From positions 8,005 through 72,004 of the forward strand of contig CAZOAZ010000023.1 of the NCBI GenBank assembly GCA_964577955.1: DNA of 64,000 bases, in the 5' to 3' direction. This document shows, in pieces, positions 26,382 through 44,511 of this stretch. Both the position numbers and the translations under genes were made by a program. Each line of letters begins with the position of its first letter. Position 1 is the stretch's first letter. The stretch comes from an uncultured Bifidobacterium sp. Lineage in GTDB: Bacteria > Acidobacteriota > Vicinamibacteria > Vicinamibacterales > CAVVIG01. The notes under the pieces are model-generated. The model worked only from the letters and a program-made list of their open reading frames with translations. It did no database searches and had not been told where the DNA came from.

Positions 26382-27337
26382 ATCGCCATCAACTGTTTGG
26401 TCGAGATTGTCGAAATGCCGTCAATTGGCGTCGCGTACTTCCACGGATCGTAGACGCGGGTGAACTTCACCGGCGACGCCTTCCACAGCGCGCGGATGTC
26501 GTCGAATTCGCTTTGCGGTCGCCTGAACATCCAGCCGTTTCTCACGTAGTTGCCGCTGAACACTTTGCCATTCCGCCGCCAGAACCACCAGAAATGCGCC
26601 ATCGAGCGGAACGTGTAAGGCGCCGAATACTCCAGCGACCCGAGAATCGACATGTCCATGCCGATGAAGTAGGCCTCGGCGAATCCCATGAAGCTGAGGA
26701 TCGGATAGAGCGCAATCGCCGCCGAGTTCATGAACGTCGTGGCGCACTGGAGCACCGCCACGCCGTCGCGCTCGAGCGGCGCGAAGTATTTCTGCACGTC
26801 GAAGGTGTTCTCGTTCGGCGCGTGCTCGTAGTAGTAGGCGCGATCACGATAGGCGAAGTTCGGAAAGTACTCGTCCTGCAGCGCGCGATCGACGATCAGT
26901 TTCGTTTCGGGGACGCGGGCCAGCAGGTCGTAGGGAGAGTCCTTCAGGTAAACGTCAGGCCGCCACTTGTAGCGCTTGTGCGGCCCGCGGTGCACCCGCC
27001 ACGGGACGTAGTACTCGTCGAAATGATCCCGCAGCTCCTGCGCCACCGTCCGGAACGGCGGCTTCAGCATCCAGTCGATGTTGATCTGCGCCAGAAACGA
27101 TCGGTAGATGAAGTGCTGAATCGCGTTGTCCTTGGCCTTCTCCGGAAAGAGCAGCAGGTGATAGTCGGGCGCGCCGGCGGCGGCGATGAAGCCCGGCGTC
27201 AGCGCCTTGGTCTCGACCAGCGTGACGAAACCGGATCGTCGCAGCCAGCCGAAGTCGAAGCCGTGGGCCAGCAGCGACGGACCGCCAAAGACGACGAGCG
27301 CGCGTTGACCGCGATGCCGACCGCGGAGCCGAACCAT
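26378..27337 (-). CDS. Uncharacterised protein, possibly DUF115/Maf (MptE-like) family: candidate nonulosonic-acid transferase
   Basis: The start is taken at MVRLRGRH (ATG 27337). The segment QRALVVFGGPSLL..TLVETKALTPGFIAAAGAPDYHLLLF resembles the DUF115 GNGPSL / ..PDY.. pattern. The assignment is tentative. Confidence 0.35.
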   Translation of the reverse strand: MVRLRGRHRGQRALVVFGGPSLLAHGFDFGWLRRSGFVTLVETKALTPGFIAAAGAPDYHLLLFPEKAKDNAIQHFIYRSFLAQINIDWMLKPPFRTVAQELRDHFDEYYVPWRVHRGPHKRYKWRPDVYLKDSPYDLLARVPETKLIVDRALQDEYFPNFAYRDRAYYYEHAPNENTFDVQKYFAPLERDGVAVLQCATTFMNSAAIALYPILSFMGFAEAYFIGMDMSILGSLEYSAPYTFRSMAHFWWFWRRNGKVFSGNYVRNGWMFRRPQSEFDDIRALWKASPVKFTRVYDPWKYATPIDGISTISTKQLMAM

Positions 27338-27352
27338 CAGTGGTAACGGTAG

Positions 27353-27372
27353 GGACAGGCTGCAGCCTGTCC
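27353..27372. promoter_or_regulatory. Perfect 20-nt palindrome / RNA hairpin in a 46-nt intergenic gap
   Basis: ggacaggc-tgca-gcctgtcc (8-bp stem, 4-nt loop) lies between the radical SAM stop (27384) and the next start (27337). No U-tract follows in either orientation. Confidence 0.5.
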
Positions 27373-27383
27373 GTCCAAAACAA

Positions 27384-31363: not shown

Positions 31364-31967
31364 CGCGGTCGGTGAGCGACTTGCCGTGTTTCACGTAGTT
31401 GTAGAGCGGCACCGGGAGGTGAAAGATCTTGTCACGGTCGAGACGATCGAAGAGATCGTGATCCTCGAACACCTTCTTCTTCTTGTTGTACGACCCGACG
31501 CGCTCGAGATGCGAGGTCCTCAGCATCAGCCCGCACGCCAGGCCGTTGTTCTGGAACGACTCGACGGACATGATCTTCTCGTCGTTGTCGGTCAGAAAGT
31601 AGTCGCACGAGACGCCGATGTACTGCGGACAGAACCGCAGGAAGTTGAACAGCATCGGCAGGAACGGCGGCTGGACGTAGTCGTCGGCGTCGACGCGGAC
31701 GAAGAACTTGCCGCGCGAATGATCCACCCCGATGCGGGCGCTCGCCCCGACTCCGACATTCTTCCGGTTCACGACCAGCTTGATGTCACCAGCGGCATGA
31801 AACGTCTTCAGCGCCTCCACCGAGTCGTCGGTACTGTGGTCGTCGACGACGATGATTTCGTATTTGCTGCGTTCGATTTCCTGGCTGAGGAGCGAACGCA
31901 GGCAGCGGCGTACATAGCTCCCGTAGTTGTAGTTGGTGACGACGACGGAGATGTCCGGGCCCCTCAT
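31344..31967 (-). CDS. Glycosyltransferase family 2 (short, lower-GC gene)
   Basis: The start is taken at MRGPDISVVVTNYNYGSYV (ATG 31967, ATGA overlap). Motifs IIVVDDHSTDDS and RVDADDY. Confidence 0.8.
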   Translation of the reverse strand: MRGPDISVVVTNYNYGSYVRRCLRSLLSQEIERSKYEIIVVDDHSTDDSVEALKTFHAAGDIKLVVNRKNVGVGASARIGVDHSRGKFFVRVDADDYVQPPFLPMLFNFLRFCPQYIGVSCDYFLTDNDEKIMSVESFQNNGLACGLMLRTSHLERVGSYNKKKKVFEDHDLFDRLDRDKIFHLPVPLYNYVKHGKSLTDRVGRLIR

Positions 31968-32674
31968 CGGACGACCTTCTCCATCAGGCGGGCGAGGCGG
32001 CACAATTCGGCGAGCTCCGCCGGCGTCGCGCTGCACACGTGATCGGGCCCGGGCAGTCCTTTGTTGAGCGTGAAGTGCTTTTCGAGCACCGTCGCGCCGC
32101 GGCCGACCGCCACCAGCATCGCTTCGATGCCAATCGTGTGGTCGCTGAAACCGTCGTAGATCGATTCCGCGAACGACACCGGCAGCGAGATGTCGCTGTA
32201 CTCGCAGGGATACTTCGGCACGCAGTACAGGTAGTGGAGCTGCGGCAGGTCGTACGGCACGTCCTCACGATCCCAGAAGCCGAGCGAAATGAACGCGTCC
32301 TTCCCGGTGGCGAGGATCCGCTCGCACAGTTCCTCGTTCTGCAGCGCGCGGCTGGCGATCTTGTGGCGGCGGACGCCCAGCTCCTCCACCCACTCGAAGC
32401 GCTCGACGTCGAAGACCGAGGCCATGAACTCGATCCCCTCCTCATCACACCACCCCTTCAACCGCTCAGCATCGTCTCTCCCGAACTGCACGGTCAGCGC
32501 CTGGCGGAGCGCCTCGTCGTTGGGATGCGATCCGTTCGGACCGAAGATCTTGTAGGGGTCGTAGAACTGGAATTTCGCGATGTCGGCGCCGGCGATCTTC
32601 GCCTGCCGGATCATTTCGTGGGCGACGTCGATGCTGCCGTTGTGGTTGATGCCGATCTCAGCGATGACAATCAT
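31964..32674 (-). CDS. NeuB-family (sialic-acid-synthase-like) protein lacking the C-terminal SAF domain
   Basis: 236 aa. Motifs MIVIAEIGINHNGSIDVAHEMIRQAKIAGADIAKFQ and GFSDHTIGIEAMLVAVGRGATVLEKHFTL..GPDH. The protein ends about 100 aa short of PseI (348 aa) in the same locus. Confidence 0.75.
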   Translation of the reverse strand: MIVIAEIGINHNGSIDVAHEMIRQAKIAGADIAKFQFYDPYKIFGPNGSHPNDEALRQALTVQFGRDDAERLKGWCDEEGIEFMASVFDVERFEWVEELGVRRHKIASRALQNEELCERILATGKDAFISLGFWDREDVPYDLPQLHYLYCVPKYPCEYSDISLPVSFAESIYDGFSDHTIGIEAMLVAVGRGATVLEKHFTLNKGLPGPDHVCSATPAELAELCRLARLMEKVVR

Positions 32675-32679
32675 GCGCG

Positions 32680-33927
32680 TCAGAAGTAGATGGAGGGCAG
32701 TTCCGTTCGCAGGCGCTCGAGCCCTGGTCGCAGCGCCTTGACCTTCAGATAGTCGCCACGCCAGTCGACCGCGATAGTACCGGGATAGTAGCGGTTGATG
32801 TAGGTGGCCATTTCAGGAGCGGTGTCTTCGCGCAGGTAGTTGTAGAAATCCTTACGCACGCGGTGAAAGCCGTCGGTGAACCACTTCTCGAAGCCGAGCC
32901 ACTGCGGAACCAGTCCCCAGATCACCTCGAGCGGTGTGCCGGCAAAACGGATCTGCAGGACGTCCCAGATCGCGAACTCGTCGAGCTTCGCGTGGAACCG
33001 TTCCAGAAACGTGCGGCTCATGAGGTGATTCGTCGCACAGCCGAACCACTCGGGACCAGCCTCGCGATGAAACGCCACCCCGTTGACCCGTTCCGGCGAA
33101 ACGACGCGCTCGGCAGGTTGTGGCTGTCCGCCGACAAATACCGGCGCCGCTTCGCCGTCGGCGGCCGGCCCGTCGCTCATCCGCCGCCGGGCCGCTCTCG
33201 CCTCGACTCGCCACGGCAGTTCGCGGAGCAGTCCGCCTTCTGCTGGCGACCCGAACGTGCGGATCCAGCGTGAGCGGAGCGCTCGAAGACGCGACGACGG
33301 CGGACCACCAGCCGGCACGTGATTCTGCGTTTCGGCGGCAAAGTCCGAATGCCAGTCCTCGAGCACCCGGCGAAACGCCGGATCGCGCGAGAAGATTGCG
33401 AACGCTTCGGCAATCATCTGGTCTTCGAGGCGATCAATCGGCGTCGGTTGATCGTGACGCTCGCGGTAGCGCAGAAACTGATCCTTGGGTATCCGCCGCT
33501 TCTCGTGCCCGGACGCGATCACGTGCACGCCCTTTGCGGGCGCGAACGTCAGCATCGAGGACAGCAACTGCTCCCGCGCCAGCAGCGTGCCCTCGCCGAT
33601 GAACAGCACCCAGTCGTAGTCGCGCCAGCGTCCGTCCCGGATGAACTTGTACCAGGCGCCCGAGTCCAGGCTTTCGTCGTTCTGATACTCGATCGTATGG
33701 ACCCCAGGCCGCGACAGCGCGCAGACGCCGCGGACCCGCTCGTCGAACGGACTGAGCTGCTGATTCATGCCCGGCGCGTCGGCCCGGATCGCGCCGCCGC
33801 CGCCGACGTTGTAGAGCACGAAGACGTCGAACGCCTGCAGATCCTGCAGCAGCGTCGTCACCAGCGTCGACTGCATCAGCCACGGCTTGTGATGGACGCA
33901 GAAGACCAGCGCCAGACGGTTGGCCAT
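32680..33927 (-). CDS. Hypothetical protein (415 aa), no recognisable domain
   Basis: Long ORF in the operon frame with good third-position GC and an ATG start 3 nt below the upstream stop. N-terminus MANRLALVFCVHHKPWLMQSTL. A central Arg/Ala-rich low-complexity stretch is present. Confidence 0.6.
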   Translation of the reverse strand: MANRLALVFCVHHKPWLMQSTLVTTLLQDLQAFDVFVLYNVGGGGAIRADAPGMNQQLSPFDERVRGVCALSRPGVHTIEYQNDESLDSGAWYKFIRDGRWRDYDWVLFIGEGTLLAREQLLSSMLTFAPAKGVHVIASGHEKRRIPKDQFLRYRERHDQPTPIDRLEDQMIAEAFAIFSRDPAFRRVLEDWHSDFAAETQNHVPAGGPPSSRLRALRSRWIRTFGSPAEGGLLRELPWRVEARAARRRMSDGPAADGEAAPVFVGGQPQPAERVVSPERVNGVAFHREAGPEWFGCATNHLMSRTFLERFHAKLDEFAIWDVLQIRFAGTPLEVIWGLVPQWLGFEKWFTDGFHRVRKDFYNYLREDTAPEMATYINRYYPGTIAVDWRGDYLKVKALRPGLERLRTELPSIYF

Positions 33928-33930
33928 CGA

Positions 33931-34602
33931 CTAGACGCGGTGTTCCCGCGATCCGCGCCACAGCGCCTCCGCGAATGCAAAATCTTCTTCGGTGTCGATG
34001 TCGACGATCTCGAAGCGGTCACCCATCTCGACGAGCCTGACCTGTTGCCAGTCCCAGTAGCGGCCGTGCTCGAAGAAATAGCGCTTCTCGAAGAAATACA
34101 GCGCGTGCGCGAACTCGAGCACCGGCTGGACGGTCTTGCTGTTGATGGTCTTCATGTCGGCCGGAAAATTGAGCGGCCGGTGGTCGAGGCTGATGAAGTG
34201 ATTCTGCCGCCTGACGACACCAAAGGCGGGCGCCAGATTGCCGCGGACGCAGTCGCCCAGGAACCCCTGGATCGTTTCCGCGCGGAGAAACGGCAGGCAG
34301 GCGTTGACGATCAGGAGATGCGTAAACGGCACGTCGTGCAGGAACGACAGGATCTCGGTGATCGGCTCGTCGATCGTCGCGCTGCGCTCGCTGCGCCGGA
34401 CGAACGGGACCCCGTGGGCCACGCACTTGTCACGAAACGCGTTTTCGTGCCCGGCGAAGAAACCGCGCGTGCCAAACGTCGCGAGTTTCTCGAGCGCAAT
34501 GTCCACCAGCGTCGTGCCGGCGAACGGCCGCAGCATCTTGTTCGGGCAGCGCTGGCTTTGCGAACGGCCGAACGAAAACACGCCAATCGAAGGGGTCGTC
34601 AT
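33931..34602 (-). CDS. Cytidylyltransferase-family protein (CMP-NeuAc synthetase / SpsF-like)
   Basis: 223 aa. The N-terminal GVFSFGRSQSQRCPNKMLRPFAGTTL resembles the ..ARxxSxRxPxKxL..G.. opening of the acylneuraminate cytidylyltransferase family. It is the second such gene in the locus. Confidence 0.6.
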   Translation of the reverse strand: MTTPSIGVFSFGRSQSQRCPNKMLRPFAGTTLVDIALEKLATFGTRGFFAGHENAFRDKCVAHGVPFVRRSERSATIDEPITEILSFLHDVPFTHLLIVNACLPFLRAETIQGFLGDCVRGNLAPAFGVVRRQNHFISLDHRPLNFPADMKTINSKTVQPVLEFAHALYFFEKRYFFEHGRYWDWQQVRLVEMGDRFEIVDIDTEEDFAFAEALWRGSREHRV

Positions 34603-35861
34603 ACGCGTGCCACCGAAGCCACCTCAGCGATGGCCGCGAAACTTCTCGCCGCCGCCCCGTCGACCGAACCGAGATACTTGCGGAGATACGCCTCACGCGC
34701 CTCGGGATCGACCCTGAAGCTGTCCAGCGTCAGCGATGGCAACCGGTCGAGCGCTTCACCAATCCCGATGGTCGTCGACACCCCGGCAAAAGCGAAGGGA
34801 CCGCCTTCCTCCGTGATGAAGAATCGATCGTGCGACTTGTGCATGTCGGCTTCGTCGCCGAGGTAGTCGTGCGCGTCGAACGTGATGCACAGGTTGGGAA
34901 CGCCCATCGACACGGCCTCGAGCACGCTCAGACTGAAGTAGTTCACGCAGACGTCGGCAATGGCCATGGCCTCGAGGATCGTCGGCGGGTAGTAGCCTTC
35001 GTCGTAGAGCGCCTTGTCGGCGGCCGCATGGAGGTACGGCGGAATCGGCGTCTTCTCCCGCGACTTCACCAGCAGGAACGCACCGTTGCGATTGCAGAAC
35101 GCCCGCAGGGCGCCGACGACCGCCGCATCCGACCAGCCGCGGCGGACGTGTTCGATGTATTCGAAGCGCCTTCTGCGGACGATGTTGAAGAGTTGACGGA
35201 GCCGGCTCGGTTCGCCAAACACCGACTTGGGCCAGAACGTCTGCTTGCCGACGCCCTGCGGAAACGGCAGCAGCAGAACCACCGGCTGCTCTTTCGGAAT
35301 GCCCCAGCGCGCCCGGACCGCCGCGGCATCGATGACGCCCGCAACATCAGCTTCGGCAAAACCGGTCCATACGGCACGCGACGCCAGCAGCGTGGGCAGC
35401 GGGTCGCTCGCCGCTTTGCTCGTCGCCCTATAGAAGTCCTCCGCCCACTCGAGCCACCAGGGCGACTGCAGCAGCAGGCGATCGCACGACAGCAGCCCGG
35501 ACGGCGGATGCGTCAGGAATGTATCGAGCCCGGATTGCACGAGACACCACGGTACGTTCGCGCCGAGGGCACGGTCGCCGATATCGCTCTGACGAGTCCC
35601 AATCGAGAGCACGGCGTCGTAGCCGCCCGCGGCAAGACCAGCCGCGAGCTCATCGGCACCGCGAAACGTCTTCACGTTGACGGATCCTTTGAACGTCGGC
35701 GTGCGTGCCACGGCGGGAAAGAGATAGCTCTTGGCGCCTTCAGACGGATGGCTGTAGTCGTGCCAGCAGTCCACCATGGCGCCGTTCGTCAGCGCCGCAT
35801 CGATGATCGGCCCCACCAGCTTGTAGGTCGAAATGCGGCTGATGACGGCAGCGATCTTCAT
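34599..35861 (-). CDS. Hypothetical protein (420 aa), possible GT-B-like transferase
   Basis: ATGA-coupled to pseG upstream and to the cytidylyltransferase-like gene downstream. No motif recognised. The two-lobed alpha/beta-looking sequence only suggests a GT-B or TagF-like fold. Confidence 0.55.
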   Translation of the reverse strand: MKIAAVISRISTYKLVGPIIDAALTNGAMVDCWHDYSHPSEGAKSYLFPAVARTPTFKGSVNVKTFRGADELAAGLAAGGYDAVLSIGTRQSDIGDRALGANVPWCLVQSGLDTFLTHPPSGLLSCDRLLLQSPWWLEWAEDFYRATSKAASDPLPTLLASRAVWTGFAEADVAGVIDAAAVRARWGIPKEQPVVLLLPFPQGVGKQTFWPKSVFGEPSRLRQLFNIVRRRRFEYIEHVRRGWSDAAVVGALRAFCNRNGAFLLVKSREKTPIPPYLHAAADKALYDEGYYPPTILEAMAIADVCVNYFSLSVLEAVSMGVPNLCITFDAHDYLGDEADMHKSHDRFFITEEGGPFAFAGVSTTIGIGEALDRLPSLTLDSFRVDPEAREAYLRKYLGSVDGAAARSFAAIAEVASVARV

Positions 35862-36889
35862 GACGCCCGCACGACCTCTCGCGCCACCCGCGCCGCACCG
35901 TGACCGTCGACGAGCGTCCGGCCAGCCAGACTCTGCTTACGCCGCAGCCCTGAATCGGCCAGCAGCGCCGACACTGCGTTCTGTAACCGCTGGGCAAGGC
36001 CGGAGTCGTCAATCGATCCGGCGGATAGCGCCGTGCCGGCGCTGACGAAGCCGTGCAGCGTCGGCCGCTGGTTGTCGAACAGTTCCATCGCCACGGCGGG
36101 CGTGCCGGTCGCGGCCGCCTCGTACAACGTCTGCCCCGCGGCGCAGACGACGAGTTCGGCGTCGACCAGCAGCGGATGGAGCGATGGAGGACCGTCGACG
36201 ATCCGCACGACATGTCGAGATTCGAGTGGGACGGACCAGCCATCCGAAAACGGGCCGACGACGACGGTCATCGTGAAGGCGGCGGGCAGGGCGTCGAGCC
36301 ACTCGACGATTCTCGGCAGCAGACGATGCGGATCGCTGCCGCCGACGGCGACGAGAACCTGTGGCGACGCGGCCGCGGCCTGCCGTTCAGGCGGTTCGAC
36401 TTCGTACTCGGGCTGCAGCACCGCATACGCGGGTCCCAGGAGAAACTGTGTGGCCTCCGTCGTCGAACGGTACGGCACACGGTCGGCGCCGATCGCCCCG
36501 TTGATCAGCACGTCGGCCGGTGTCGGCGACGACGCCTGATCGTCGAACACGGTCAGCCTGCCCGCAGCATCCCGAACCGTCGCCAGGTCCGCAGCGCTCA
36601 GGCGATACGAATCGACGACAGCCATCCGAGCGCGTTCGTGGCGGATCACATTCACGGTCTGATCGACATCCTCGTGAGCGCCGAGCCGATCGAGTCCGGC
36701 CTCGAGCGCCACGAACCGGCAGCCGGCCGCGGCGGTGCGCTGACGCACGGTCTCGAAATCCGGAGCAAGGACCACGCTATCCATGTCACATCTGCCAAGG
36801 GCGCGCGCCAGCGCCAGCGAACGCTGCAGATGTCCCAGTCCAATACCCGGACCGGCGTCCACCCGCAGTACCGCCGTGAATCGTGTCAC
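35858..36889 (-). CDS. pseG: UDP-2,4-diacetamido-2,4,6-trideoxy-beta-L-altropyranose hydrolase (PseG)
   Basis: 343 aa. The N-terminal LRVDAGPGIGLGHLQRSLALARAL is the typical PseG opening (RADAS..IGxGHxMRCL). GT-B-like C-terminal half. Lies in pse gene context. Confidence 0.8.
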   Translation of the reverse strand: MTRFTAVLRVDAGPGIGLGHLQRSLALARALGRCDMDSVVLAPDFETVRQRTAAAGCRFVALEAGLDRLGAHEDVDQTVNVIRHERARMAVVDSYRLSAADLATVRDAAGRLTVFDDQASSPTPADVLINGAIGADRVPYRSTTEATQFLLGPAYAVLQPEYEVEPPERQAAAASPQVLVAVGGSDPHRLLPRIVEWLDALPAAFTMTVVVGPFSDGWSVPLESRHVVRIVDGPPSLHPLLVDAELVVCAAGQTLYEAAATGTPAVAMELFDNQRPTLHGFVSAGTALSAGSIDDSGLAQRLQNAVSALLADSGLRRKQSLAGRTLVDGHGAARVAREVVRAS

Positions 36890-37560
36890 CGCAGCGAGCG
36901 CACCAGTTCAAAGGCTTCGGCATACTGCACGCCCGCCGCCGCACCACGAGAACGAGCCAGCGCCCGCAGCGACTCCGGCGAACGCGGATGCGGTGCCGGC
37001 CGAGACTCGGAGCGGTAACGTTGCATCGCCTCGACTTTTTGCTCGATCGTCGCCGTGACGTCGACGAACACCGACGGCCGGAACACCGGGTCGACCCGCT
37101 GGAACGCCCACTCGGTCGACGAGGGCACTTCGAAGAGGTAAAGGTCCTTGACGCGGTGTGCGGCCGCACCAGGGCGCGTGGCCGTCAGCACCGCGCGAAA
37201 CGTCAGGCCGTGATCGATGTTCAGGTCGCCCGGATGGTGGGTATAGATGGCGTCCGGCCGGTACTCCTCGACCCATCCTTCGACGCGCTTCACGATGTCG
37301 AGGAGCGAGACCTCGTCGAAGCGATTGTCGGGTAGACCGCCGAAGGCGACCCCGCGGGCGCCGAGCACGGCCGCCGCGGCCCTGGCATCGGCGCGGAGTT
37401 CGTCGAGCGCGCTCTCGGCAACGCCGCTGCGTTCGGCGTGCCTCGAGCTCAACCCCTCGCCGAGGATCGCGATCTGGACCGAATGGTGCCCCGACTCGCG
37501 CGCCACCAACCCGCCGCAGCCAAGCACTTCGTCGTCTGGATGCGCCGCCACGATGAGCAT
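36886..37560 (-). CDS. PIG-L / LmbE-family N-deacetylase
   Basis: MLIVAAHPDDEVLGCGG (AHPDDE motif) and HHPGDLNIDH (zinc-ligand His cluster). The ATG at 37560 lies 2 nt below the upstream stop. Confidence 0.85.
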   Translation of the reverse strand: MLIVAAHPDDEVLGCGGLVARESGHHSVQIAILGEGLSSRHAERSGVAESALDELRADARAAAAVLGARGVAFGGLPDNRFDEVSLLDIVKRVEGWVEEYRPDAIYTHHPGDLNIDHGLTFRAVLTATRPGAAAHRVKDLYLFEVPSSTEWAFQRVDPVFRPSVFVDVTATIEQKVEAMQRYRSESRPAPHPRSPESLRALARSRGAAAGVQYAEAFELVRSLR

Positions 37561-37562
37561 GT

Positions 37563-38753
37563 TCACGATGGTGACCCGTCCTTCGCGGGCGTGAGGCGCA
37601 CCTGTGCACGCAGGACACCGCCGTCCAGCGATGCGCCGGTGAACTCGCAACGTGCGCCGCCGATGTCGGTATAGGCGTGCGGATAGCCCTCGGCATCGAG
37701 CATCCGGATGAAGTCGTAGAGTTCGTCGATGCTCGCGCTGTCCGGTAGCCGGCTCTCAGCCGGGGTGCGGCGGCGGAATTCCACAACGTCGCCGGACTGC
37801 GGCTCCGGCACTGGCTGTTCGTCGAGAATGCGGCCGACCATCCTCGCCGCCAGTTCGGACGCACGAACGTAGATGTCTTGCGCGCTGCCGTCGAGCGCGA
37901 GCGGCGCCTTGAGATAGATCGGCCCGGCGTCCAGCTCCTCGCTCAAGCGGAACGCGCTCAGCACGGTCGTCCGGTGGCCGCGCAGGATCAGGTTCTGCAG
38001 CGGCGATCCGCCGCGGCCGTACGGCAGATCGGTCATGTGGAAGCCGACGCATTCGAAGCCGTTGACGATCTCGGCCGGCACCTTCCACGACCAGTGGACG
38101 AAGAAGATGTAGCGCGGTCCATGCGATCGGACGAGCGTCGCGAGGCTGTCGGGATTGTCGACAAGGATCCAGCGTCCCGGACGGTCGGCGAGGCATCGAT
38201 CGAAGACCTCGCGATTCCACGCCCCGCGAGCGGCGACCAGATAGCACTCACTCACATCCGGCCTCAGCCTGGTGCCGCTGCCGCTCTGGCGTTCGCGGCG
38301 TTCGAGACGGATCGCGGGATGGCCGGCAACCGTTTCCTCCCCCGTCGCGACGAATCCCGCCTGCTCGAACGTCCGCAGCGAAGCGCGATTCTCCGGCTTC
38401 ACGCGGGCGACGATGGCGACACGGGGATGGCGGCGCTGTAGCTGCACGCTGGCTTCGCGCAGCATCGTAACGCCGAGTCCGCGCTGCCGGCACGCCGGCG
38501 CCACGCTGATATCGACTTCTGCCTCACCGCCGCTTCGATCGAAGCGGATCTGGCCGACCGCGACGCCGTTCTCTTCAGCGACAAACATCTCGCAGTCGCT
38601 CGCCTGAAGTCGGCCGGCAAACCACCGTTGATGATCGGCCCAGGTGATTGGCTCGGACTGGAACGCCGAGGCGCGAGTCACCGAATCGTTAACCCACTCC
38701 CAGAGCAGCCGCGCATCGGCCGCGGTCGCGCGCCGCAGCGTGAGTGCGCTCAC
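37563..38753 (-). CDS. pseH: Fusion: PseH-like GNAT N-acetyltransferase + formyltransferase-like domain
   Basis: The N-terminal ~150 aa are GNAT (LRRATAADARLLWEWVNDSVTR..VGQIRFD..RQRGLGVTML). The C-terminal ~230 aa are Formyl_trans_N-like (FVHWSWKVPAEIV..GFHMTDLPYGRGGSPLQNLI..EELDAGPIY). GTG start with GTGA overlap with pseI. Confidence 0.7.
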   Translation of the reverse strand: MSALTLRRATAADARLLWEWVNDSVTRASAFQSEPITWADHQRWFAGRLQASDCEMFVAEENGVAVGQIRFDRSGGEAEVDISVAPACRQRGLGVTMLREASVQLQRRHPRVAIVARVKPENRASLRTFEQAGFVATGEETVAGHPAIRLERRERQSGSGTRLRPDVSECYLVAARGAWNREVFDRCLADRPGRWILVDNPDSLATLVRSHGPRYIFFVHWSWKVPAEIVNGFECVGFHMTDLPYGRGGSPLQNLILRGHRTTVLSAFRLSEELDAGPIYLKAPLALDGSAQDIYVRASELAARMVGRILDEQPVPEPQSGDVVEFRRRTPAESRLPDSASIDELYDFIRMLDAEGYPHAYTDIGGARCEFTGASLDGGVLRAQVRLTPAKDGSPS

Positions 38754-39796
38754 GAAATGTCGTCCTGCTGGACCGGCGCGTCGCTCGCAATCGCGCGTTT
38801 CGCGTAGCGGCCGAGCACGCCGGGGAAAGCGGACGGCGGCAGCCCCGGATGGTTCTTGCCCTGGCGGAGAACCGCGATGTTATCGCGGCTGAATACTTCC
38901 CCGGCGGCGATCGCCCGGGTGGCGAAGACGCTGCGGCGGGCGAAGGCACGGAGCTCGTCCTCCACCGGATCGACGACCTTCTCGCCGCTGCCGCGCACCA
39001 GTTCGGCCTGGCGGATTCGCGTCACCATCTCGCGCAATTCATGCGGTTCGAGCGCAAAGCGATGGTCGGGGCCGGCGAGCGCGTTGCTCAGCGTGAAGTG
39101 TTTCTCGATGATCGACGCGCCGCACGCGACTGCGGCCACCGGCGCGACGATCGGATCGCGGGAGTGATCGGAGAGCCCGACCGGCACCTGGAATCGATCC
39201 GCCAGCGTCACCAGGGCGCGCACGTTGATCGACGCGATCGGCGCCGGATAGGCCGCTGTGCACTGCAGCAGCGCCAGTTCGCGGTTGCCCGCCTCGCGGC
39301 AGGTGGCGACCGCTTCTTCCACTTCGGCGAGGTTCGAGGTGCCCGTCGACAGAATCATCGACGTGCCCTTCGCCGCGACATGGCGCAGCAACGGTGCATG
39401 GGTCATCTCGTAGGAGGCAATCTTGAAGGTCTCGACGTACGGATCCAGCCGATCGGCCGACTCCTCATCGAATGGCGTCGCGAGAAAGTGAACCGACCGC
39501 GCGCGGCAGTGGTCGGAAAGGACCGGCAGCCACTCGTACGGCATCTCCATCGCGGCGATGATGTCGACGATTGGCGTCGGTACCTTGAGGTAGTCGCTGA
39601 CGCCGGCACTCCTCGGATACATCCGCGCCGCCCGGAAGACCTGGAATTTCACGGCATCGGCGCCGGCGTCAGCCGCGACATCGATGAGCTGCCGGGCCAT
39701 CTGCAGATCGCGATTGTGGTTGCTGCCGGCTTCGGCGATGACATACACCGGATGCGCCGGGCCGACGTGGCGGTCGCCGATCCGGATCCCTGGCAT
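38750..39796 (-). CDS. pseI: Pseudaminic acid synthase (NeuB family with SAF domain)
   Basis: The start is taken at MPGIRIGDRHVGPAHPVYVIAEAGSNHN (ATG 39796, TGATG overlap with pseF). Motifs GLSDHS and EKHFTL..GPDH, plus a C-terminal SAF-like RSVFATRAIAAGEVF. Confidence 0.85.
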   Translation of the reverse strand: MPGIRIGDRHVGPAHPVYVIAEAGSNHNRDLQMARQLIDVAADAGADAVKFQVFRAARMYPRSAGVSDYLKVPTPIVDIIAAMEMPYEWLPVLSDHCRARSVHFLATPFDEESADRLDPYVETFKIASYEMTHAPLLRHVAAKGTSMILSTGTSNLAEVEEAVATCREAGNRELALLQCTAAYPAPIASINVRALVTLADRFQVPVGLSDHSRDPIVAPVAAVACGASIIEKHFTLSNALAGPDHRFALEPHELREMVTRIRQAELVRGSGEKVVDPVEDELRAFARRSVFATRAIAAGEVFSRDNIAVLRQGKNHPGLPPSAFPGVLGRYAKRAIASDAPVQQDDIS

Positions 39797-40524
39797 CACG
39801 CTTCGGCCGCCTGCATCGCGCGCAAGTAGTGCTCGGCCTGGCGGGCCTGGTCCGGGTAGTCGACCTCCAGCGAATACTTGTCGTCGTCCTGAACGAGGAG
39901 ATGCAGCCGCTCGCCGAACCACGCGTGCAGGGCGCGGTTGCCATCGGTGGCTTCGAGTGTCGACACGCGGACGCCGTAGACCGCGCCGTCCATCGCGAAG
40001 ATCTTCGGGTAGTCCTGAGTCCTGAAACCACGATCCGAGTTCATGAACGGCTCACAGGCGCCGGTCGCAGGATCGGTGATGACCTTCGCCCACTCGGGCC
40101 GGAAGCGCAGTTGCTGCGCCGTGCACACCGCGGTCGCCTCCGGAGTCCGTTCGAGTCGCGCGATGACTTCGTCGATCTGGCCGGTTTTCCGGATCGGAAC
40201 GTTGCCTTGCATCGTGATGGCGAGATCGGCGTGAAAACCGTCTCGGCTGGCAAGCAACCGCACGACCTGACGGATCGCATCGTCGAGCGCCGCGGTATCG
40301 GACGCGAGTTCGGCGGGACGCGGCACGAACTCGACGCCATACGCGCGGGCCAGTTCCTCGAGCGCGGGATCGTCCGACGACACCACCAGCCGATCGAGGC
40401 GCTTCGCGTCGAGCGCGGCTTCGAGCGTATACGCAAACATCGGCTTGCCGCAGAGCCGCGCGAGATGTTTGTCCGGAAACCTCAGGCTGCCTTTACGCCC
40501 GGGAATGATGCCGACGGTTTTCAT
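39796..40524 (-). CDS. pseF: Pseudaminic acid cytidylyltransferase (CMP-sugar synthetase family)
   Basis: 242 aa. The opening MKTVGIIPGRKGSLRFPDKHLARLCGKPM is typical of CTP_transf_3 family enzymes. Adjacent to pseI. Confidence 0.8.
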   Translation of the reverse strand: MKTVGIIPGRKGSLRFPDKHLARLCGKPMFAYTLEAALDAKRLDRLVVSSDDPALEELARAYGVEFVPRPAELASDTAALDDAIRQVVRLLASRDGFHADLAITMQGNVPIRKTGQIDEVIARLERTPEATAVCTAQQLRFRPEWAKVITDPATGACEPFMNSDRGFRTQDYPKIFAMDGAVYGVRVSTLEATDGNRALHAWFGERLHLLVQDDDKYSLEVDYPDQARQAEHYLRAMQAAEA

Positions 40525-40554
40525 CTACTCGGTTCTCATCGACATGGTGCTCAT
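40525..40554 (-). other. 9-codon mini-ORF (MSTMSMRTE*) exactly filling the gap between the radical SAM stop and the pseF start
   Basis: The minus-strand sequence reads TAG|ATGAGCACCATGTCGATGAGAACCGAGTAG|ATGAAA. The upstream stop, the mini-ORF and the pseF ATG are contiguous and in one frame. Confidence 0.35.
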
Positions 40555-42306
40555 CTAGACGTCCGCACGCGTGGCGCCGCGCACCCGCTCCGGGCGTTCC
40601 TGGACCTCGCCGGTGTGAGGATGGCGAACGGTGTTCTGCGCCCCGAGTGAATTGATGGCCTGCCAGGACAGTTCAACGACCTCCTCGTCAGGCAAGTCGC
40701 TGAAATTGGTGCGAACGTTTTCGCCCTGTTCGCCCAGTTTCAAGAAGTACTGTTCGATGATGTCTTCGTCCGCCGGCCCCTTCACCCCGGTCACCGCCTT
40801 GGCGATCAGACCGCGATCGAGTGCGAGCTGCCAGAATGCCGTGGCCGGATACGCCGTCGTGAAGAAGAAGACCTCCGGCTTGAGGTTGACGCGGTTGCAG
40901 AACTCCACCGTTTCACGAACGGTGTCGGCGGTTTCGCCCGGAGAACCAATCATGAACGAGCAGTCGGCGTAGCCCAGGACGCGCTGCGTCTCGCTGATCG
41001 CCAGCTCCATCTTTTCGATGGTCTGGCCGCTCTTGTCGATCTCCTTGAGCACGGTCGGACTGCCCGACTCAATCCCGTAGCCGGCTTGTCGCATGCCGAC
41101 GTCGTACGCCTGTTCGAGCATGTGCGGCCGGCCTTCCTTCCGCGCTCTGATCACATCGTCGGCAATGATGTTGGTGCGGCAGGTGCCGCCCCAGAGCACT
41201 TCGAAGCCACTCCGCGCCCGCCGCTCGCGAAGTTCAGCACAAAGCTGCAGCGCCCACCGGTAGTCGGTCATCAACAGATCGTCGAGGAAGTGCACGTAGG
41301 CCGCGCCGTAGTGCTCGACCAGAAACTGCATCTCGTCGACCACTTCCTTCGGACTGCGGAGCCGGTACTGCGCGCCGAGATACGCGGCGTAGCAGTAGTC
41401 GCACGCCTTGCCGGCATAGGGGCACCCGCGTGACGCGATCATCGACATACTGAACTGGCCGGGCTCGGTCGACGCACCGTCCTTCCACTTGCTCTTCCAA
41501 TTGAGATGCCCGACCGGATTTCGCTTGTAGACCTCTTCCTCCGGCCAGCGGCCGCGCAGCGGCCAGGGCAGGTGATCGAGGCCGCGCCGTTGCGCCTGCA
41601 CCGACGGCCGGTGGCCGTTGTCGCGGATATCGAAATCGCCGGGCCGAAGTTCGTGCCGATAGGCGATTCCCTTGACCGACGCCAGCGACCCGCGTTCCTC
41701 CAGACAGTGAAGCACTTCGGAGAACGTGACCTCGCCCTCCTCCTGCACGGCAATGTCGATCGGCAGGCGCCGAAGCATGAATTCGGGGGCGGATGACGCG
41801 ATGCCACCGCCGAGAATGATCGGCACATCGGGACAGAGCTTTCGGCAGAGTTCCGTGATGGCGCGGATGCGGCCATACTGCGTGATGATCCCGCCGATAC
41901 CGATCACATCGGGTTTTTGCTCGGAGAGTTTTTCGGTGATGCGCCGCTCGATCCAGGCGTTGAAGTCCGACGCCGGCTGCTTCACCGGGCCGCCGCGTTC
42001 GGCATTCAGATCGAGCACGTCGACCTGGTGTCCGTCCATGGCCGCTACGGCGCCGACGTAGCCCTGACCGATCGGCATGATGTTCGGAAAGGACCACTCG
42101 CGAATCGGCGCATTGATGAACAGCACACGCAGGCCGCGCGCCCTCGGCGTGAAGGCCCGCACGGATTCCTCAGTCGTAATGCGCGGCCACGAGTCGCTCA
42201 GCACCGAGCCGCCTGTATCGAAGCGCTGATGAAAGCGCGCCGGCGGCGGGCCGGAAACCGGCTGGCCGGCTCCGGCGAGAGGAAGAATCGTCTTGCCGCC
42301 ACTCAT
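40555..42306 (-). CDS. B12-binding domain radical SAM enzyme, copy 3, with non-canonical Cys spacing
   Basis: 583 aa. The B12-like region is RVLFINAPIREWSFPNIMPIGQGYV..PDVIGIGGI..PIILGGGIA. The cluster region RGCPYAGKACDYC (codons at 41424-41392) has CX6CX2C spacing instead of CX3CX2C. Confidence 0.8.
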   Translation of the reverse strand: MSGGKTILPLAGAGQPVSGPPPARFHQRFDTGGSVLSDSWPRITTEESVRAFTPRARGLRVLFINAPIREWSFPNIMPIGQGYVGAVAAMDGHQVDVLDLNAERGGPVKQPASDFNAWIERRITEKLSEQKPDVIGIGGIITQYGRIRAITELCRKLCPDVPIILGGGIASSAPEFMLRRLPIDIAVQEEGEVTFSEVLHCLEERGSLASVKGIAYRHELRPGDFDIRDNGHRPSVQAQRRGLDHLPWPLRGRWPEEEVYKRNPVGHLNWKSKWKDGASTEPGQFSMSMIASRGCPYAGKACDYCYAAYLGAQYRLRSPKEVVDEMQFLVEHYGAAYVHFLDDLLMTDYRWALQLCAELRERRARSGFEVLWGGTCRTNIIADDVIRARKEGRPHMLEQAYDVGMRQAGYGIESGSPTVLKEIDKSGQTIEKMELAISETQRVLGYADCSFMIGSPGETADTVRETVEFCNRVNLKPEVFFFTTAYPATAFWQLALDRGLIAKAVTGVKGPADEDIIEQYFLKLGEQGENVRTNFSDLPDEEVVELSWQAINSLGAQNTVRHPHTGEVQERPERVRGATRADV

Positions 42307-42313
42307 AGATGAC

Positions 42314-43510
42314 TCACTCGGAAAGTTGACTCACGACTTTGGTGACGGCGGCCACGACGTCGGCGACATCGTGATCGGTCATCCCATGAAACATCGGCAG
42401 GCTGACGAGCCGGCGAAAGGCGTCCTCGGCGATCGGAAAGTCGCCATCGCCCGTGCCCAGCGTCTGCCGGTAGTACGGATGCAGATGCACGGGAATGTAG
42501 TGAACGTTCGCACCGATACCCTCGGCCCGCAGCGCGCGAAAGAGCTGGGCGCGGTCGAACGCGGCGCGCGAGCGGACGCGAATTGGAAAGAGATGCCACG
42601 ATGGCTCGACGCCGTCACGAATCACCGGCAATTCGAGGTCGGACAGTCCGGCGAAGGACGCCACGTAGGTCCGCGCGATGCTGCGGCGCCGCTCGACATT
42701 CGCCGCCAGACGATCGAGCTGCGACAGGCCCAGCGCGCAGGCGATGTCGGAGATACGGTAGTTGAAGCCGAGCGCCGTCATTTCGTAGTGCCACTGGCCG
42801 CGCGCCTGGCGTTCGCGCGCGTCCGACTCGATGCCGTGGTTGCGGAAGAGACGCAGCCGCCGGGCCAGCCCGGCATCGTTGGTCGTGACCATTCCGCCTT
42901 CGCCGGTCGTCAGATGCTTGACCGGATGAAAGCTGAAGACGGTCATCTGGCTGATTGAACCGACTCGCCGCCCGTGATACTGCGCGCCGAGCGCGTGCGC
43001 CGCATCTTCAATCAACGTCAGCCGGTGATCGCGCGCGAGCGCCAGCAGTTGATCCAGATCGGCGGGATGCCCGGCGTAGTCGACCGCCAGGATCGCCTTC
43101 GTCCGGCGAGTGATCCGTTGGGCCGCCGCCGACGGATCAAGATTGAGCGTGTCGGCCTGCACGTCGGCAAAGACCGGCGTGGCGCCCTGGTACAACACGG
43201 CGTTCGAGGTCGCGCAGAACGTCATCGGCGTCGTGACCGCTTCGTCGCCGGGGCCGAGCCCCGCGGCGAAGGCCGCCGCATGCAGCGCCGCCGTCCCCGA
43301 ACTGAACGCCACCGCATCCGCCGCTCCAGTGGCCGACGCAATCCCGCGTTCGAACTCGGCGACCTTCGGCCCGGTCGTGATCCAATCCGAGCGCAGCACC
43401 GCCACAACCGCGGCGATGTCGGCTTCGGTGATCGTCTGGTGGCCGTACGGCAGCAACTCGCGCCGGACCGGCGTACCGCCGTCGACGGCGAGCCGGGCGT
43501 TGGTCGTCAT
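42314..43510 (-). CDS. pseC: UDP-4-amino-4,6-dideoxy-N-acetyl-beta-L-altrosamine transaminase (DegT/DnrJ/EryC1 family)
   Basis: The start is taken at MTTNARLAVDGGTPVRR (ATG 43510, ATGA overlap with pseB). The PLP-lysine region is SFHPVKHLTTGEGGMV. Motif LPYGHQTITEADI. Confidence 0.82.
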   Translation of the reverse strand: MTTNARLAVDGGTPVRRELLPYGHQTITEADIAAVVAVLRSDWITTGPKVAEFERGIASATGAADAVAFSSGTAALHAAAFAAGLGPGDEAVTTPMTFCATSNAVLYQGATPVFADVQADTLNLDPSAAAQRITRRTKAILAVDYAGHPADLDQLLALARDHRLTLIEDAAHALGAQYHGRRVGSISQMTVFSFHPVKHLTTGEGGMVTTNDAGLARRLRLFRNHGIESDARERQARGQWHYEMTALGFNYRISDIACALGLSQLDRLAANVERRRSIARTYVASFAGLSDLELPVIRDGVEPSWHLFPIRVRSRAAFDRAQLFRALRAEGIGANVHYIPVHLHPYYRQTLGTGDGDFPIAEDAFRRLVSLPMFHGMTDHDVADVVAAVTKVVSQLSE

Positions 43511-44511
43511 TCCTGAATCAGCCGTCGAAGTTCGTCGACACTCAGCCAGCGCTCGTTGGTATCGCTGCTGAAGCGGAAGCCATCGGGCACGGGCCGTCCC
43601 TCGTGCCAGTTGTCGGCCCGCCACCACGGATGGAGCGGTTTGATCAGATAGAGGTCGTCGAGCTCCAGCGCATGACGCGACTCATCCTCGGACACCAGCA
43701 CTTCATGCACCTTCTCGCCCGGCCGGATGCCGGTCAGCTTCACCTGGCAGCCCGGCGCGACCGCCGAGACGAGATCCATGATCCGCATGCTCGGAATCTT
43801 CGGCACGAACACTTCCCCGCCCTGCATCACGTCCAGGCAGCGAAGCACGAAGTCGACGCCCTGCTGCAGCGTGATCCAGAAGCGCGTCATGCGATCGTCG
43901 GTCACCGTCACCGTACCGGTCGCGCGCTGCTCGACGAACAGCGGAATCACGCTGCCGCGGCTGCCGACGACGTTGCCGTAGCGGGCGCAGCTGAATTTCG
44001 TGCCGGCTTCCCCCGAGTAGGCATTGCCCTGCACGAACAGCTTCTCGGCGCACAGCTTCGTCGCGCCGTACAGGTTCACCGGGTTGACGGCCTTGTCGGT
44101 GCTGAGCGCGAGCACGTGGCCGACGCCGGCGTCGATCGCCGCGTCGATCACGTTCGAGCCGCCGACGATATTGGTCTTCACCGCCTCGAACGGGTTGTAC
44201 TCGCAGGCCGGCACCTGCTTCAGCGCGGCGGCGTGGATGACGACGTCCACGCCGCTCATCGCCCGGCGCAGCCGATCCAGATCGCGGACGTCGCCGATGA
44301 AGTAGCGGACCTTCTTGCCGCCGAACTCGCGGAACATTTCCGACTGTTTGAGTTCATCGCGGCTGAAGACGATCACCTTGCGCGGTTCGTAGCGCTTCAG
44401 CACGGTGTCGACGAAACGGCGCCCGAATGACCCGGTGCCGCCGGTCACGAGGACGACCTTGTTGGTGAGCGTCATGGCTGTGGATGTCACGGAATCCTTT
44501 TCTCGGCGCAC
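43507..44511 (-). CDS. pseB: UDP-N-acetylglucosamine 4,6-dehydratase (inverting), PseB/FlaA1 type
   Basis: Motifs VVLVTGGTGSFG and STDKAVNPVNLYGATK. The maximal ORF uses the GTG at 44511. Alternative starts are the GTG at 44490 (AAGGA 4 nt upstream) and the ATG at 44475. Confidence 0.88.
   Translation of the reverse strand: MRREKDSVTSTAMTLTNKVVLVTGGTGSFGRRFVDTVLKRYEPRKVIVFSRDELKQSEMFREFGGKKVRYFIGDVRDLDRLRRAMSGVDVVIHAAALKQVPACEYNPFEAVKTNIVGGSNVIDAAIDAGVGHVLALSTDKAVNPVNLYGATKLCAEKLFVQGNAYSGEAGTKFSCARYGNVVGSRGSVIPLFVEQRATGTVTVTDDRMTRFWITLQQGVDFVLRCLDVMQGGEVFVPKIPSMRIMDLVSAVAPGCQVKLTGIRPGEKVHEVLVSEDESRHALELDDLYLIKPLHPWWRADNWHEGRPVPDGFRFSSDTNERWLSVDELRRLIQE

Follow-up and report, generated by a model that had tools for sequence, protein, structure and literature searches.

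A stretch of 64,000 nucleotides (the window; positions 8,005 to 72,004 of contig CAZOAZ010000023.1, assembly GCA_964577955.1) carries, at 35858-44511, a tightly packed set of genes related to those for the biosynthesis of pseudaminic acid (Pse), in which a cobalamin (B12)-dependent radical S-adenosylmethionine (SAM) enzyme, hereafter the rSAM enzyme, is encoded between pseC and a cytidylyltransferase gene. In the best explanation, the genes form the central part of a conserved variant pathway to cytidine monophosphate (CMP)-activated Pse, with a two-gene unit of rSAM enzyme and cytidylyltransferase and an add-on that would edit N-acyl groups; we put the probability of this explanation, taken as a whole, at about one half. 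On the comparison of gene neighbourhoods, the locus is a member of a widespread and undescribed variant of the Pse pathway rather than an idiosyncratic interruption of it, and the hallmark of this variant is the rSAM enzyme together with a non-canonical cytidylyltransferase. The module probably makes a modified sugar.

Nonulosonic acids, i.e., the class of sugars to which Pse belongs, cap the surface glycans of bacteria and archaea and shape how cells are recognised by phages, immune systems and neighbouring cells. The diversity known among them stems from N- and O-substituents.

Family assignment and locus comparison

Protein families were called with the equivalog (TIGR) cut-offs of NCBIfam and with the Pfam cut-offs, all scores being given in bits. 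Related loci were collected by scanning species-representative genomes with two exact peptide patterns, which resulted in 66 loci (L-numbers). L001 is from Cytophagales, L028 from the cultured cyanobacterium Lusitaniella coriacea LEGE 07167 (NZ_JBBBDN010000001.1:334413-356101) and L055 from a Brocadiaceae metagenome-assembled genome (MAG), while L035 and L036 are alphaproteobacterial. Synteny was mapped by tblastn with the proteins of the window, and gene-presence counts refer to the 37 loci whose flanks extend for 6 kb or more in either direction, referred to as well flanked.

Gene content and operon structure

The eight genes that the first-pass annotation had described are all present on the minus strand, in the content, order and position that it gave, and with strong family matches. 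In the direction of transcription they are pseB (43507..44511 as its longest open reading frame (ORF), with GTG 44490 or ATG 44475 as alternative starts on reading the start region), encoding an inverting UDP-N-acetylglucosamine (UDP-GlcNAc) 4,6-dehydratase; pseC (42314..43510), encoding a pyridoxal phosphate-dependent aminotransferase with an ATG start at 43510; the rSAM gene (40555..42306), whose product of 583 amino acids belongs to a 'long' Pse-locus subfamily of cobalamin-dependent radical SAM enzymes; CTP1 (39796..40524), a PseF-like, non-canonical cytidylyltransferase of the CTP_transf_3 family; a SpsE-like nonulosonate synthase gene, neuB (38750..39799, ATG start at 39799), with a NeuB TIM barrel and a SAF domain; a fusion (37563..38753) of a PseH-like GNAT acyltransferase (residues ~ 1-160) with a formyltransferase-like domain (residues ~ 170-396); an N-deacetylase of the PIG-L/LmbE family (36886..37566); and a pseG-like UDP-sugar hydrolase (35858..36889). 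The window has a GC content of 66% and nearly all of its genes lie on the minus strand; in the eight genes at 35858-44511 GC at third codon positions is 0.78-0.87, a codon-position GC typical of real genes. The motifs that had been named for PseB and PseC, STDKAVNPVNLYGATK and HPVKHLT, are present in the translations.

That the extra enzymes are embedded in the core and coupled to it was confirmed, as the junctions are formed by ATGA or GTGA overlaps or by gaps of a few bases. An ATGA overlap joins the stop of pseB to the start of pseC (43510; junction read in the sequence) and another joins CTP1 to neuB (start 39799), GTGA overlaps join neuB to the fusion gene and PIG-L to pseG, and pseC is separated from the rSAM gene by 7 nt. 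The PIG-L gene starts either at GTG 37566, which gives a GTGA overlap, or at ATG 37560, 2 nt past the upstream stop. The operon had been delimited at 35858-44511; the genes are there, but the unit runs on past both coordinates, with a PMT_2 gene that ends 8 nt ahead of pseB on the upstream side and, on the downstream side, ATGA overlaps at the pseG/u420 and u420/CTP2 junctions (genes described below). Neither tRNA genes nor Rfam families at the gathering threshold were found in the window (1-64000), hence no cobalamin riboswitch, despite the presence of three B12-dependent enzymes. The best relatives are MAGs of Rokubacteria/Methylomirabilota and Acidobacteriota.

A 9-codon ORF (40525..40554, minus strand; MSTMSMRTE followed by a stop codon) fills exactly the 30-nt gap between the rSAM gene and CTP1. 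All three are in one reading frame, with two TAG codons between them in a repeated TAGATG context (40522-40557). This mini-ORF, which had been listed as a member of the operon, exists in the sequence but is not conserved: the closest relatives (L072 and L073/L074) lack it, with rSAM and cytidylyltransferase genes that overlap in L072 and stand 15 nt apart in L073, and the length of the gap varies among loci. We therefore rejected it as a coupling device and consider that it is probably not a gene and that the same-frame arrangement is due to chance.

Recurrence of the module across lineages

Relatives of the rSAM gene stand inside Pse loci of several archaeal lineages and of no fewer than 12 phyla of bacteria. 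The loci come from Methylomirabilota, Acidobacteriota, Chloroflexota, Nitrospirota, the Alpha-, Gamma- and 'Delta'-proteobacteria, Omnitrophota, Planctomycetota (including the Brocadiaceae MAG), Verrucomicrobiota, Patescibacteria, Actinomycetota, Cyanobacteria together with their non-photosynthetic relatives, Pacearchaeota and Methanoregulaceae, and one of the 66, that of Lusitaniella coriacea LEGE 07167, has a cultured source. The enzyme occurs in a long form of about 585 amino acids (61-78% identical) and a short form of about 460 amino acids (35-40%), both of which occupy the same genomic slot. Every well-flanked locus has a NeuB-type synthase (37/37), and most have PseC (32/37), PseG (31/37) and PseB (29/37). 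The recurring order is pseB-pseC-rSAM-cytidylyltransferase, followed by pseG, a GNAT gene and neuB in variable order, and the nearest relatives (L072 and L073) repeat the order of the window, including the fusion of GNAT and formyltransferase-like domains.

These comparisons alter the earlier picture of a canonical gene order interrupted by non-canonical enzymes, since pseB-pseC-rSAM-cytidylyltransferase is itself a widespread conserved order. Whether the insertion of rSAM, PIG-L and formyltransferase genes recurs in pse loci had been proposed as a check; the rSAM gene does so widely across phyla, and the PIG-L and formyltransferase-like pair in about ten loci. It had also been considered that the inserted genes might be frequent members of such loci with established functions; they are common, but no characterisation of them was found.

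The sister loci are informative on the pathway to which the rSAM family belongs. L001, L028 and L036 lie above the equivalog cut-offs for PseB (512-539 bits), PseC (475-569 bits), PseG (194-236 bits) and PseI (483-502 bits), and L035 does so for PseG (177.5 bits) and PseI (484 bits). Because PseB, PseC, PseG and PseI are canonical in loci with the same rSAM gene, the family is, to judge from these family models, an accessory of genuine Pse pathways.

In addition to a short B12-rSAM gene after pseC, the Brocadiaceae locus has a radical SAM gene of the SPASM/twitch type between pseB and pseC (L055:1689-2744). Among several families to which its product is weakly similar is DesII, an enzyme that removes the amino group of a 4-amino-4,6-dideoxy sugar.

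The cytidylyltransferase as constant partner

The most constant neighbour of the rSAM gene is the cytidylyltransferase gene. A CTP_transf_3 gene lies on the same strand and at most 2.5 kb downstream in 53 of 60 loci, and in 28 loci it directly adjoins the rSAM gene; in most of the non-adjacent cases it is about 1,000 nt away, which in annotated loci corresponds to exactly one Gfo/Idh/MocA gene in between. None of the rSAM-linked cytidylyltransferases tested reaches the PseF cut-off of 205.7 bits (scores of 87-117 bits, two of the proteins being only KdsB-like), and the solved structures closest to CTP1 are CMP-Neu5Ac synthetases, at 63 bits. The one enzyme that is consistently altered is therefore that to which recognition of the finished sugar falls. 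Since the cytidylyltransferase is consistently non-canonical while the other Pse enzymes are canonical, the comparison points to the free or CMP-linked nonulosonate, rather than the UDP-hexose, as the likely target of the modification.

An earlier point of action is unlikely in our view, and the evidence on it is mixed. If the substrate of the rSAM enzyme were the PseC product, a UDP-4-amino-4,6-dideoxy-hexose, or the keto-sugar formed by PseB, all of the later enzymes would have to handle a modified hexose. The order pseB-pseC-rSAM is indeed frequent, pseC being immediately upstream of the rSAM gene in 23 of 61 loci, and this adjacency (38% of loci) is also compatible with a UDP-amino-sugar substrate, which counts against the later stage; moreover, PseH, PseG, PseI and PseF fall under their cut-offs in the window while PseB and PseC pass. 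However, PseG and PseI are fully canonical in L001, L028, L035 and L036 despite the presence of the rSAM gene, and the link of the rSAM gene to the cytidylyltransferase (53/60) is much stronger than its link to pseC. Action at the nonulosonate or CMP-nonulosonate stage is the reading that we retain.

Many loci show another architecture (e.g., L004:11772-14852 and L055:5408-9387), which is not present in the window: the rSAM gene is followed by a Gfo/Idh/MocA gene, a KdsB-like cytidylyltransferase gene and a gene for a class III (HemL-like) aminotransferase, often with SAM methyltransferase genes behind. This gene content suggests that a single sugar may be oxidised, transaminated and methylated.

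The B12-dependent radical SAM enzyme

The rSAM protein has both features of class B enzymes, i.e., an N-terminal B12-binding Rossmann domain (PF02310, 60.1 bits, cut-off 32.1) and a radical SAM barrel (PF04055, 43.1 bits, cut-off 29.5). Its cluster motif is Cx6Cx2C (C295, C302 and C305) and not CxxxCxxC, which reviews give as the canonical motif of the class. The motif reads CPYAxxACDYC and is invariant in all 42 long-type sequences, whereas the short subfamily has CPYxCxYC. Because the three cysteines are kept, a [4Fe-4S] cluster is still expected in the long form.

Homologues numbered 510, the best 120 of the 510 being 70-80% identical, and they include proteins from Rokubacteria, Anaerolineae, Cytophagales and Bathyarchaeia. 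Across 12 sequences from different lineages the mean column identity is 80%, the enzyme being the most conserved protein of the locus, and C154, C376, C449 and C470 are invariant in this alignment besides the cluster cysteines. Five of the homologues (P0071, P0090, P0100, P0104 and P0108) are orthologues of about 930 amino acids with a LAGLIDADG-type intein (PF14528), which in P0090 splits the cluster motif right after ...ACDY and ahead of CYAAY, so that the third cluster cysteine would be the +1 residue. The high conservation, and the fact that some homologues carry an intein immediately ahead of this cysteine, speak for an enzyme that is active and under strong constraint.

The reaction is more difficult to assign. 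Attempts to place the enzyme in a characterised subfamily by hidden Markov model or PDB sequence search gave superfamily-level matches only: the best NCBIfam equivalogs are ApyD (96 bits, cut-off 750), BchE (85 bits) and HpnJ (84.5 bits), the best PDB match is TokK at 30 bits, and no characterised subfamily fits. C-methylation is our preferred guess because the characterised class B enzymes that act on sugars and small molecules, such as GenK, GenD1, MoeK5, Fms7 and Fom3, are mostly C-methyltransferases, and because Fom3 offers a cytidylyl parallel in requiring a cytidylylated substrate (PMC9204698). Three points weigh against it, namely that the function of cobalamin-dependent radical SAM enzymes cannot be read from sequence (PMC9204698), that the AlphaFold model of the enzyme is poor (pLDDT 56, from a 12-sequence alignment), and that the best NCBIfam matches of the short subfamily, HpnJ (181-192 bits) and BchE (180 bits), are not methylases.

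Radical chemistry other than methylation on a Pse-type sugar is a serious, though less probable, alternative, with epimerisation, deoxygenation or dehydration, deamination and skeletal rearrangement (known for OxsB and proposed for HpnJ) as candidate reactions. The HpnJ and BchE matches of the short subfamily are in line with it, as are the order of matches for the long form, in which HpnJ, BchE and ApyD come ahead of any methylase, the Cx6Cx2C spacing, which is atypical for the class, and the ring contractions, cyclisations and thioether formation that reviews place in the class. Yet all of these matches are far under their cut-offs and have methylases mixed in (Sden_1168, PhpK, QCMT and HpnR), the characterised sugar-modifying members are mostly C-methyltransferases, and a rearranged skeleton would still need to be accepted by a NeuA/PseF-like cytidylyltransferase. 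C-methylation remains the reaction that we carry forward. The fuller proposal that follows from it, i.e., that rSAM enzyme and cytidylyltransferase form a widespread two-gene module which turns Pse into a C-alkylated, CMP-activated ulosonic acid of 10 carbons, is put forward tentatively and as a conjecture that could well be wrong.

Core enzymes and the configuration of the product

Two enzymes of the window, PseB and PseC, score above curated cut-offs, and the first two steps are accordingly of the Pse type, as previously claimed, and this at equivalog level. PseB reaches 498 bits on TIGR03589 (cut-off 407.75) and 59.7 bits on the LegB model; it matches Polysacc_synt_2 (9e-100, Pfam) and has a T-x9-Y-x3-K motif, which is the Tyr form of the catalytic triad. 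PseC reaches 470.8 bits on TIGR03588 (cut-off 423.5) and 246 bits on the LegC model (cut-off 420), with a match to DegT_DnrJ_EryC1 (6e-127, Pfam).

The remaining core enzymes weigh against a straightforward assignment to Pse. PseG narrowly misses its cut-off, with 146.5 bits on TIGR03590 (cut-off 153.55), homologues in L001, L028, L035 and L036 being above it at 177-236 bits. The synthase, with its NeuB (PF03102) and SAF (PF08666) domains from Pfam, scores 338.9 bits on NeuB_NnaB (cut-off 399.65) and 283.8 bits on PseI (TIGR03586, cut-off 340.25), and its closest solved relative is SpsE of Bacillus subtilis (1VLI, 281 bits), ahead of PseI (8H2C, 172 bits). The GNAT domain obtains 31.9 bits on PseH (TIGR03585, cut-off 93.1), and CTP1 obtains 90.1 bits on PseF (TIGR03584), well below the cut-off of 205.7. 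Because the synthase is SpsE-like, and PseG, PseI, PseF and PseH lie under their cut-offs, the family models leave the Pse (L-glycero-L-manno) configuration not secured in this window. The complete Pse pathway that the first-pass annotation had announced is consequently only partly supported for this locus, where all six functions have homologues and PseB and PseC pass, but PseG just misses and PseI, PseF and PseH fail; it is well supported for the sister loci.

These scores raise the question of whether this window makes a legionaminic acid (Leg)-type or other stereoisomeric 5,7-diamino-nonulosonate instead of Pse, which we regard as quite unlikely. The synthase gives the main grounds, as SpsE is its nearest solved relative (281 bits against 172 for PseI) and its NeuB score exceeds its PseI score, and B. 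subtilis makes Leg with a Pse-like set of enzymes (SpsM, C, D, G, E and F) and UDP-sugars (PMC7439481). Against this, the inverting dehydratase PseB and PseC pass their equivalog cut-offs with LegB at 60 and LegC at 246 bits, the triad, T-x9-Y-x3-K, is that of PseB whereas SpsM has the Met form, the hydrolase is of the PseG type, no NeuC/LegG could be detected by sequence, and sister loci with the same rSAM gene are unambiguously of the Pse type.

Proposed editing of the N-acyl group

The fusion protein combines an acetyltransferase domain (Acetyltransf_3, 56.7 bits) with a C-terminal domain that matches Formyl_trans_C_2 (PF21553, 66 bits, cut-off 27) and belongs to the family of 1ZGH and PF21553 (1ZGH, 182 bits over 217 residues). 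1ZGH was labelled 'methionyl-tRNA formyltransferase' by its depositors, and a functional paper on it was not found in the open-access literature. Formyl transfer by this domain is called into question by its match to Formyl_trans_N, which at 21.8 bits (cut-off 26.1) covers profile positions 70-154 only, and by its catalytic residues: the Asn of N-x-H is replaced by Gly in the window and by Val in 1ZGH, with the His and the Asp of LDxG kept, so that V-G-F-H-M-T-D-L-P stands where V-N-V-H-x-S-L-L-P is canonical. The catalytic Asn-x-His...Asp triad of sugar N-formyltransferases of the ArnA, VioF and PseJ type is thus not present in full. The domain had been called a formyltransferase, a name that is not supported as it stands, since the domain belongs to the uncharacterised 1ZGH family and lacks the catalytic Asn; on its sequence, such activity is hypothetical.

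The gene that follows encodes a PIG-L protein (PF02585, 79.3 bits, cut-off 28.2; BshB1 61.5 bits, under its cut-off) with the AHPDDE metal motif and the stretch VAAHPDDEVLGCGG. The order formyltransferase-like then PIG-L, with the two genes adjacent, is found in nine loci (L001, L011, L014, L016, L028, L036, L048, L065 and L066), and in L072 the two are one gene apart. Wherever the pair is found it adjoins GNAT, pseG or neuB. PIG-L is present in 9/37 and the formyltransferase-like domain in 5/37 of the well-flanked loci, which places the pair outside the constant module.

A product other than plain 5,7-di-N-acetyl-Pse (Pse5Ac7Ac) had been suggested from the three extra activities, and this is now the more probable both from the tie of the rSAM gene to Pse loci and from the recurrence of the PIG-L and formyltransferase-like pair. 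The contrary view, that the core makes ordinary Pse5Ac7Ac and that the rSAM, PIG-L and formyltransferase-like enzymes modify other sugars of the glycan, strikes us as improbable. It can draw on the size of the island (> 60 kb) and its many transferases, methyltransferases, two more B12-rSAM genes, carbamoyltransferase and amidotransferases, but the rSAM gene keeps its slot by the cytidylyltransferase across at least 12 phyla while the surrounding glycan genes differ, neither of the other two B12-rSAM genes in the window recurs in related loci, and the formyltransferase-like/PIG-L pair is always beside GNAT, PseG or NeuB.

Proposed pathway and its significance

The pathway that we propose combines gene identities, coupling, conservation and synteny, which are observed, with a stage of action, a methylation and a formylation that we infer. 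PseB and PseC would make UDP-4-amino-4,6-dideoxy-beta-L-AltNAc, a step with equivalog-level support, and, going by homology, the GNAT domain, PseG and the NeuB/SAF synthase would carry this to a 5,7-diamino-3,5,7,9-tetradeoxynonulosonate. The rSAM enzyme and the non-canonical cytidylyltransferase would act as a two-gene unit, altering the nonulosonate and turning the product into an activated CMP ester. The best guess for the radical step is a methylcobalamin-dependent C-methylation of an unactivated carbon, on either the free nonulosonate or the CMP-nonulosonate (compare Fom3 and its cytidylylated substrate), which would yield a 10-carbon C-methyl nonulosonate. PIG-L and the 1ZGH-type domain would form a second, more sporadic add-on for editing an N-acyl group, in which PIG-L may take off the N-acetyl group that stems from UDP-GlcNAc (at what becomes N5) and the freed amine may then be re-acylated, probably with a formyl group, or left free. 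The product would be passed to transferases (the GT-B protein u420 and a GT2 glycosyltransferase) and to an ABC exporter.

If the carbon skeleton is altered in this way, the module would define a new family of sialic-acid-like sugars and would extend cobalamin radical SAM chemistry to a new class of substrates and to an unusual variant of the cluster motif, Cx6Cx2C. Surface glycosylation would also become B12-dependent, for example in bacteria of the candidate phyla radiation (CPR) and in DPANN archaea, groups that, to our knowledge, are generally thought to be without B12 synthesis. Should the 10-carbon module be real, it would supply the missing genetic basis of the higher-carbon ulosonic acids that mass spectrometry has revealed in microbes from the environment, as well as a new class of surface sugar in uncultured bacteria, CPR bacteria and DPANN archaea. 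The rSAM gene is in any case a concrete candidate for the unassigned '10-carbon' ulosonic acids.

Downstream genes and the wider glycan island

The packing of genes continues downstream with u420 (34599..35861, minus strand, 420 amino acids), which lies outside 35858-44511. No Pfam, NCBIfam or PDB sequence match was found for u420. Its AlphaFold model (pLDDT 92.3) has a GT-B fold, for which Foldseek returns generic GT-B proteins at a TM score of about 0.5 (TagF, UDP-GlcNAc 2-epimerases and MshA). Of its 53 detected homologues nearly all are hypothetical proteins from metagenomes, and in Rokubacteria loci the gene stands between pseG and neuB. On its predicted fold u420 is a candidate for the transfer of the nonulosonate and may represent a new family of glycosyltransferases.

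Next on the minus strand come CTP2 (33931..34602), a second, divergent CTP_transf_3 cytidylyltransferase (PF02348 29.2 bits; PseF 23.9 bits); u415 (32680..33927, 415 amino acids), for which no family or PDB match was found; a second NeuB-family protein of 236 amino acids (31964..32674), consisting of the barrel only, without SAF (PF03102 152 bits; NeuB_NnaB 169 bits, under the cut-off); a GT2 glycosyltransferase (31344-32036, Pfam); and a fused ABC exporter (29483-31363, Pfam). Then follow a second B12-rSAM gene, KedN5-like (27384-29486; KedN5 182 bits, under the cut-off), and u364 (26378..27472, minus strand, 364 amino acids), for which no family matches were found. A PhyH dioxygenase is also among the downstream genes, and a third B12-binding radical SAM gene (17143-18963) is unassigned. 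The idea that u420 and u415 are paralogues was rejected, as they have no mutual similarity and neither has sequence relatives in the PDB.

Several of these genes accompany the rSAM/Pse module in other genomes. Homologues of CTP2 (53-61% identical) and of u364 (38-44%) are found in L011, L048, L065 and L067, and those of u415 in L011, L014, L048, L066 and L067. The GT2 and ABC proteins are 64% and 54% identical, respectively, to their counterparts in L011, and the ABC protein is 40-48% identical to those in L004, L006, L010, L036 and L066. CTP2, u415 and u364, joined in some loci by u420, GT2 or ABC, recur beside the module in L011, L048, L065 and L067, and L014 has u420 and u415 only of this set. 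The set at 26378-35861 may be a second CMP-activated keto-sugar branch or machinery for transfer and export, and the GT2 protein and the ABC exporter are, from their families, likely partners in assembly and export.

Elsewhere the window encodes GT-C, GT2, GT4 and GT9 transferases and methyltransferases. Tailoring genes at 4051-9697, 15001-16896 and 49989-55348 comprise two AsnB-type amidotransferases, a carbamoyltransferase (the only plus-strand gene noted), an MBOAT and AlgX-like pair and KAS III; by their annotation they indicate a heavily decorated glycan. Judged on its gene content, the window as a whole is a single glycan island that exceeds 60 kb.

Comparison with known systems

In the open-access literature we found no paper that pairs 'nonulosonic' with 'radical SAM', although subscription journals could differ, and co-mentions of pseudaminic acid and radical SAM appear incidental, going mainly by titles, abstracts and term counts. 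The top-ranked open-access papers on radical SAM and B12 make no mention of pseudaminic or legionaminic acid, and a 2026 review of the class does not mention sialic or ulosonic acids.

Mass spectrometry has revealed unexplained 10-carbon ulosonic acids in Magnetospirillum gryphiswaldense and, at a lower level, in Methanococcus; neither of the two studies assigns a gene, and the later one shows these acids as CMP esters. A C-methylating rSAM enzyme would explain them, which we treat as a lead and not as evidence. Weighing against it, no attributable Magnetospirillum homologue of the rSAM enzyme was found by the genome scan with two exact peptide patterns or by a protein search with an alphaproteobacterial orthologue. 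The link to the acids of M. gryphiswaldense was set aside as unsupported, which denotes a lack of support rather than absence.

Among enzymes that modify antibiotic sugars, GenK, GenD1, MoeK5 and Fms7 are of the same class as the rSAM enzyme and act on amino sugars or uronic acids. The setting here differs, being the primary metabolism of cell-surface glycans, and the similarity is at superfamily level, with Cx6Cx2C in place of CxxxCxxC. Many sister loci have Gfo/Idh/MocA, class III aminotransferase and SAM methyltransferase genes beside the rSAM gene, a set that we take to resemble GenD2/GenS2/GenN/GenD1. In fosfomycin biosynthesis, the cytidylyltransferase domain of Fom1 and the enzyme Fom3 likewise pair a B12-rSAM enzyme with a cytidylyltransferase and provide a mechanistic precedent for the radical methylation of a substrate linked to CMP. 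There is no close homology to this system, as judged via TokK (the best solved relative, 30 bits) and not Fom3 itself, the substrate class is another one, and the pairing described here is known from gene adjacency only.

For the N-acyl groups, PseJ is described, in work cited in PMC11040635, as a dedicated Pse N7-formyltransferase that makes N-formyl Pse; no entry named PseJ was found among the PDB matches of the fusion domain. A further parallel is offered by Candidatus Kuenenia stuttgartiensis, in which CMP-activated nonulosonic acids are reported to carry one formylated and one free amine (preprint 10.64898/2026.04.20.719630); N-acyl editing therefore precedes transfer in that organism. 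Its nonulosonic acid cluster, called Leg-related, holds a deacetylase and a formyltransferase among its genes, as is the case here, the likeness being one of description and not of sequence, and no rSAM gene is mentioned in it (10.64898/2026.04.20.719630).

The sps pathway of B. subtilis for Leg is similar in being based on UDP-sugars and in having a PseG-like hydrolase and a SpsE-like synthase. It differs in that SpsM has the Met form of the triad, whereas the dehydratase of the window carries the Tyr form and scores above the PseB cut-off, and in that an rSAM enzyme, PIG-L and a formyltransferase-like enzyme are not described there (PMC7439481). The Pse pathway of Campylobacter jejuni and Helicobacter pylori (PseB, C, H, G, I and F) resembles the locus in that homologues of all six enzymes are present in the window. 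In contrast to that pathway, a B12-rSAM gene here lies between pseC and a cytidylyltransferase gene whose product is far under the PseF cut-off, the synthase is SpsE-like, and PIG-L and a formyltransferase-like domain have been added.

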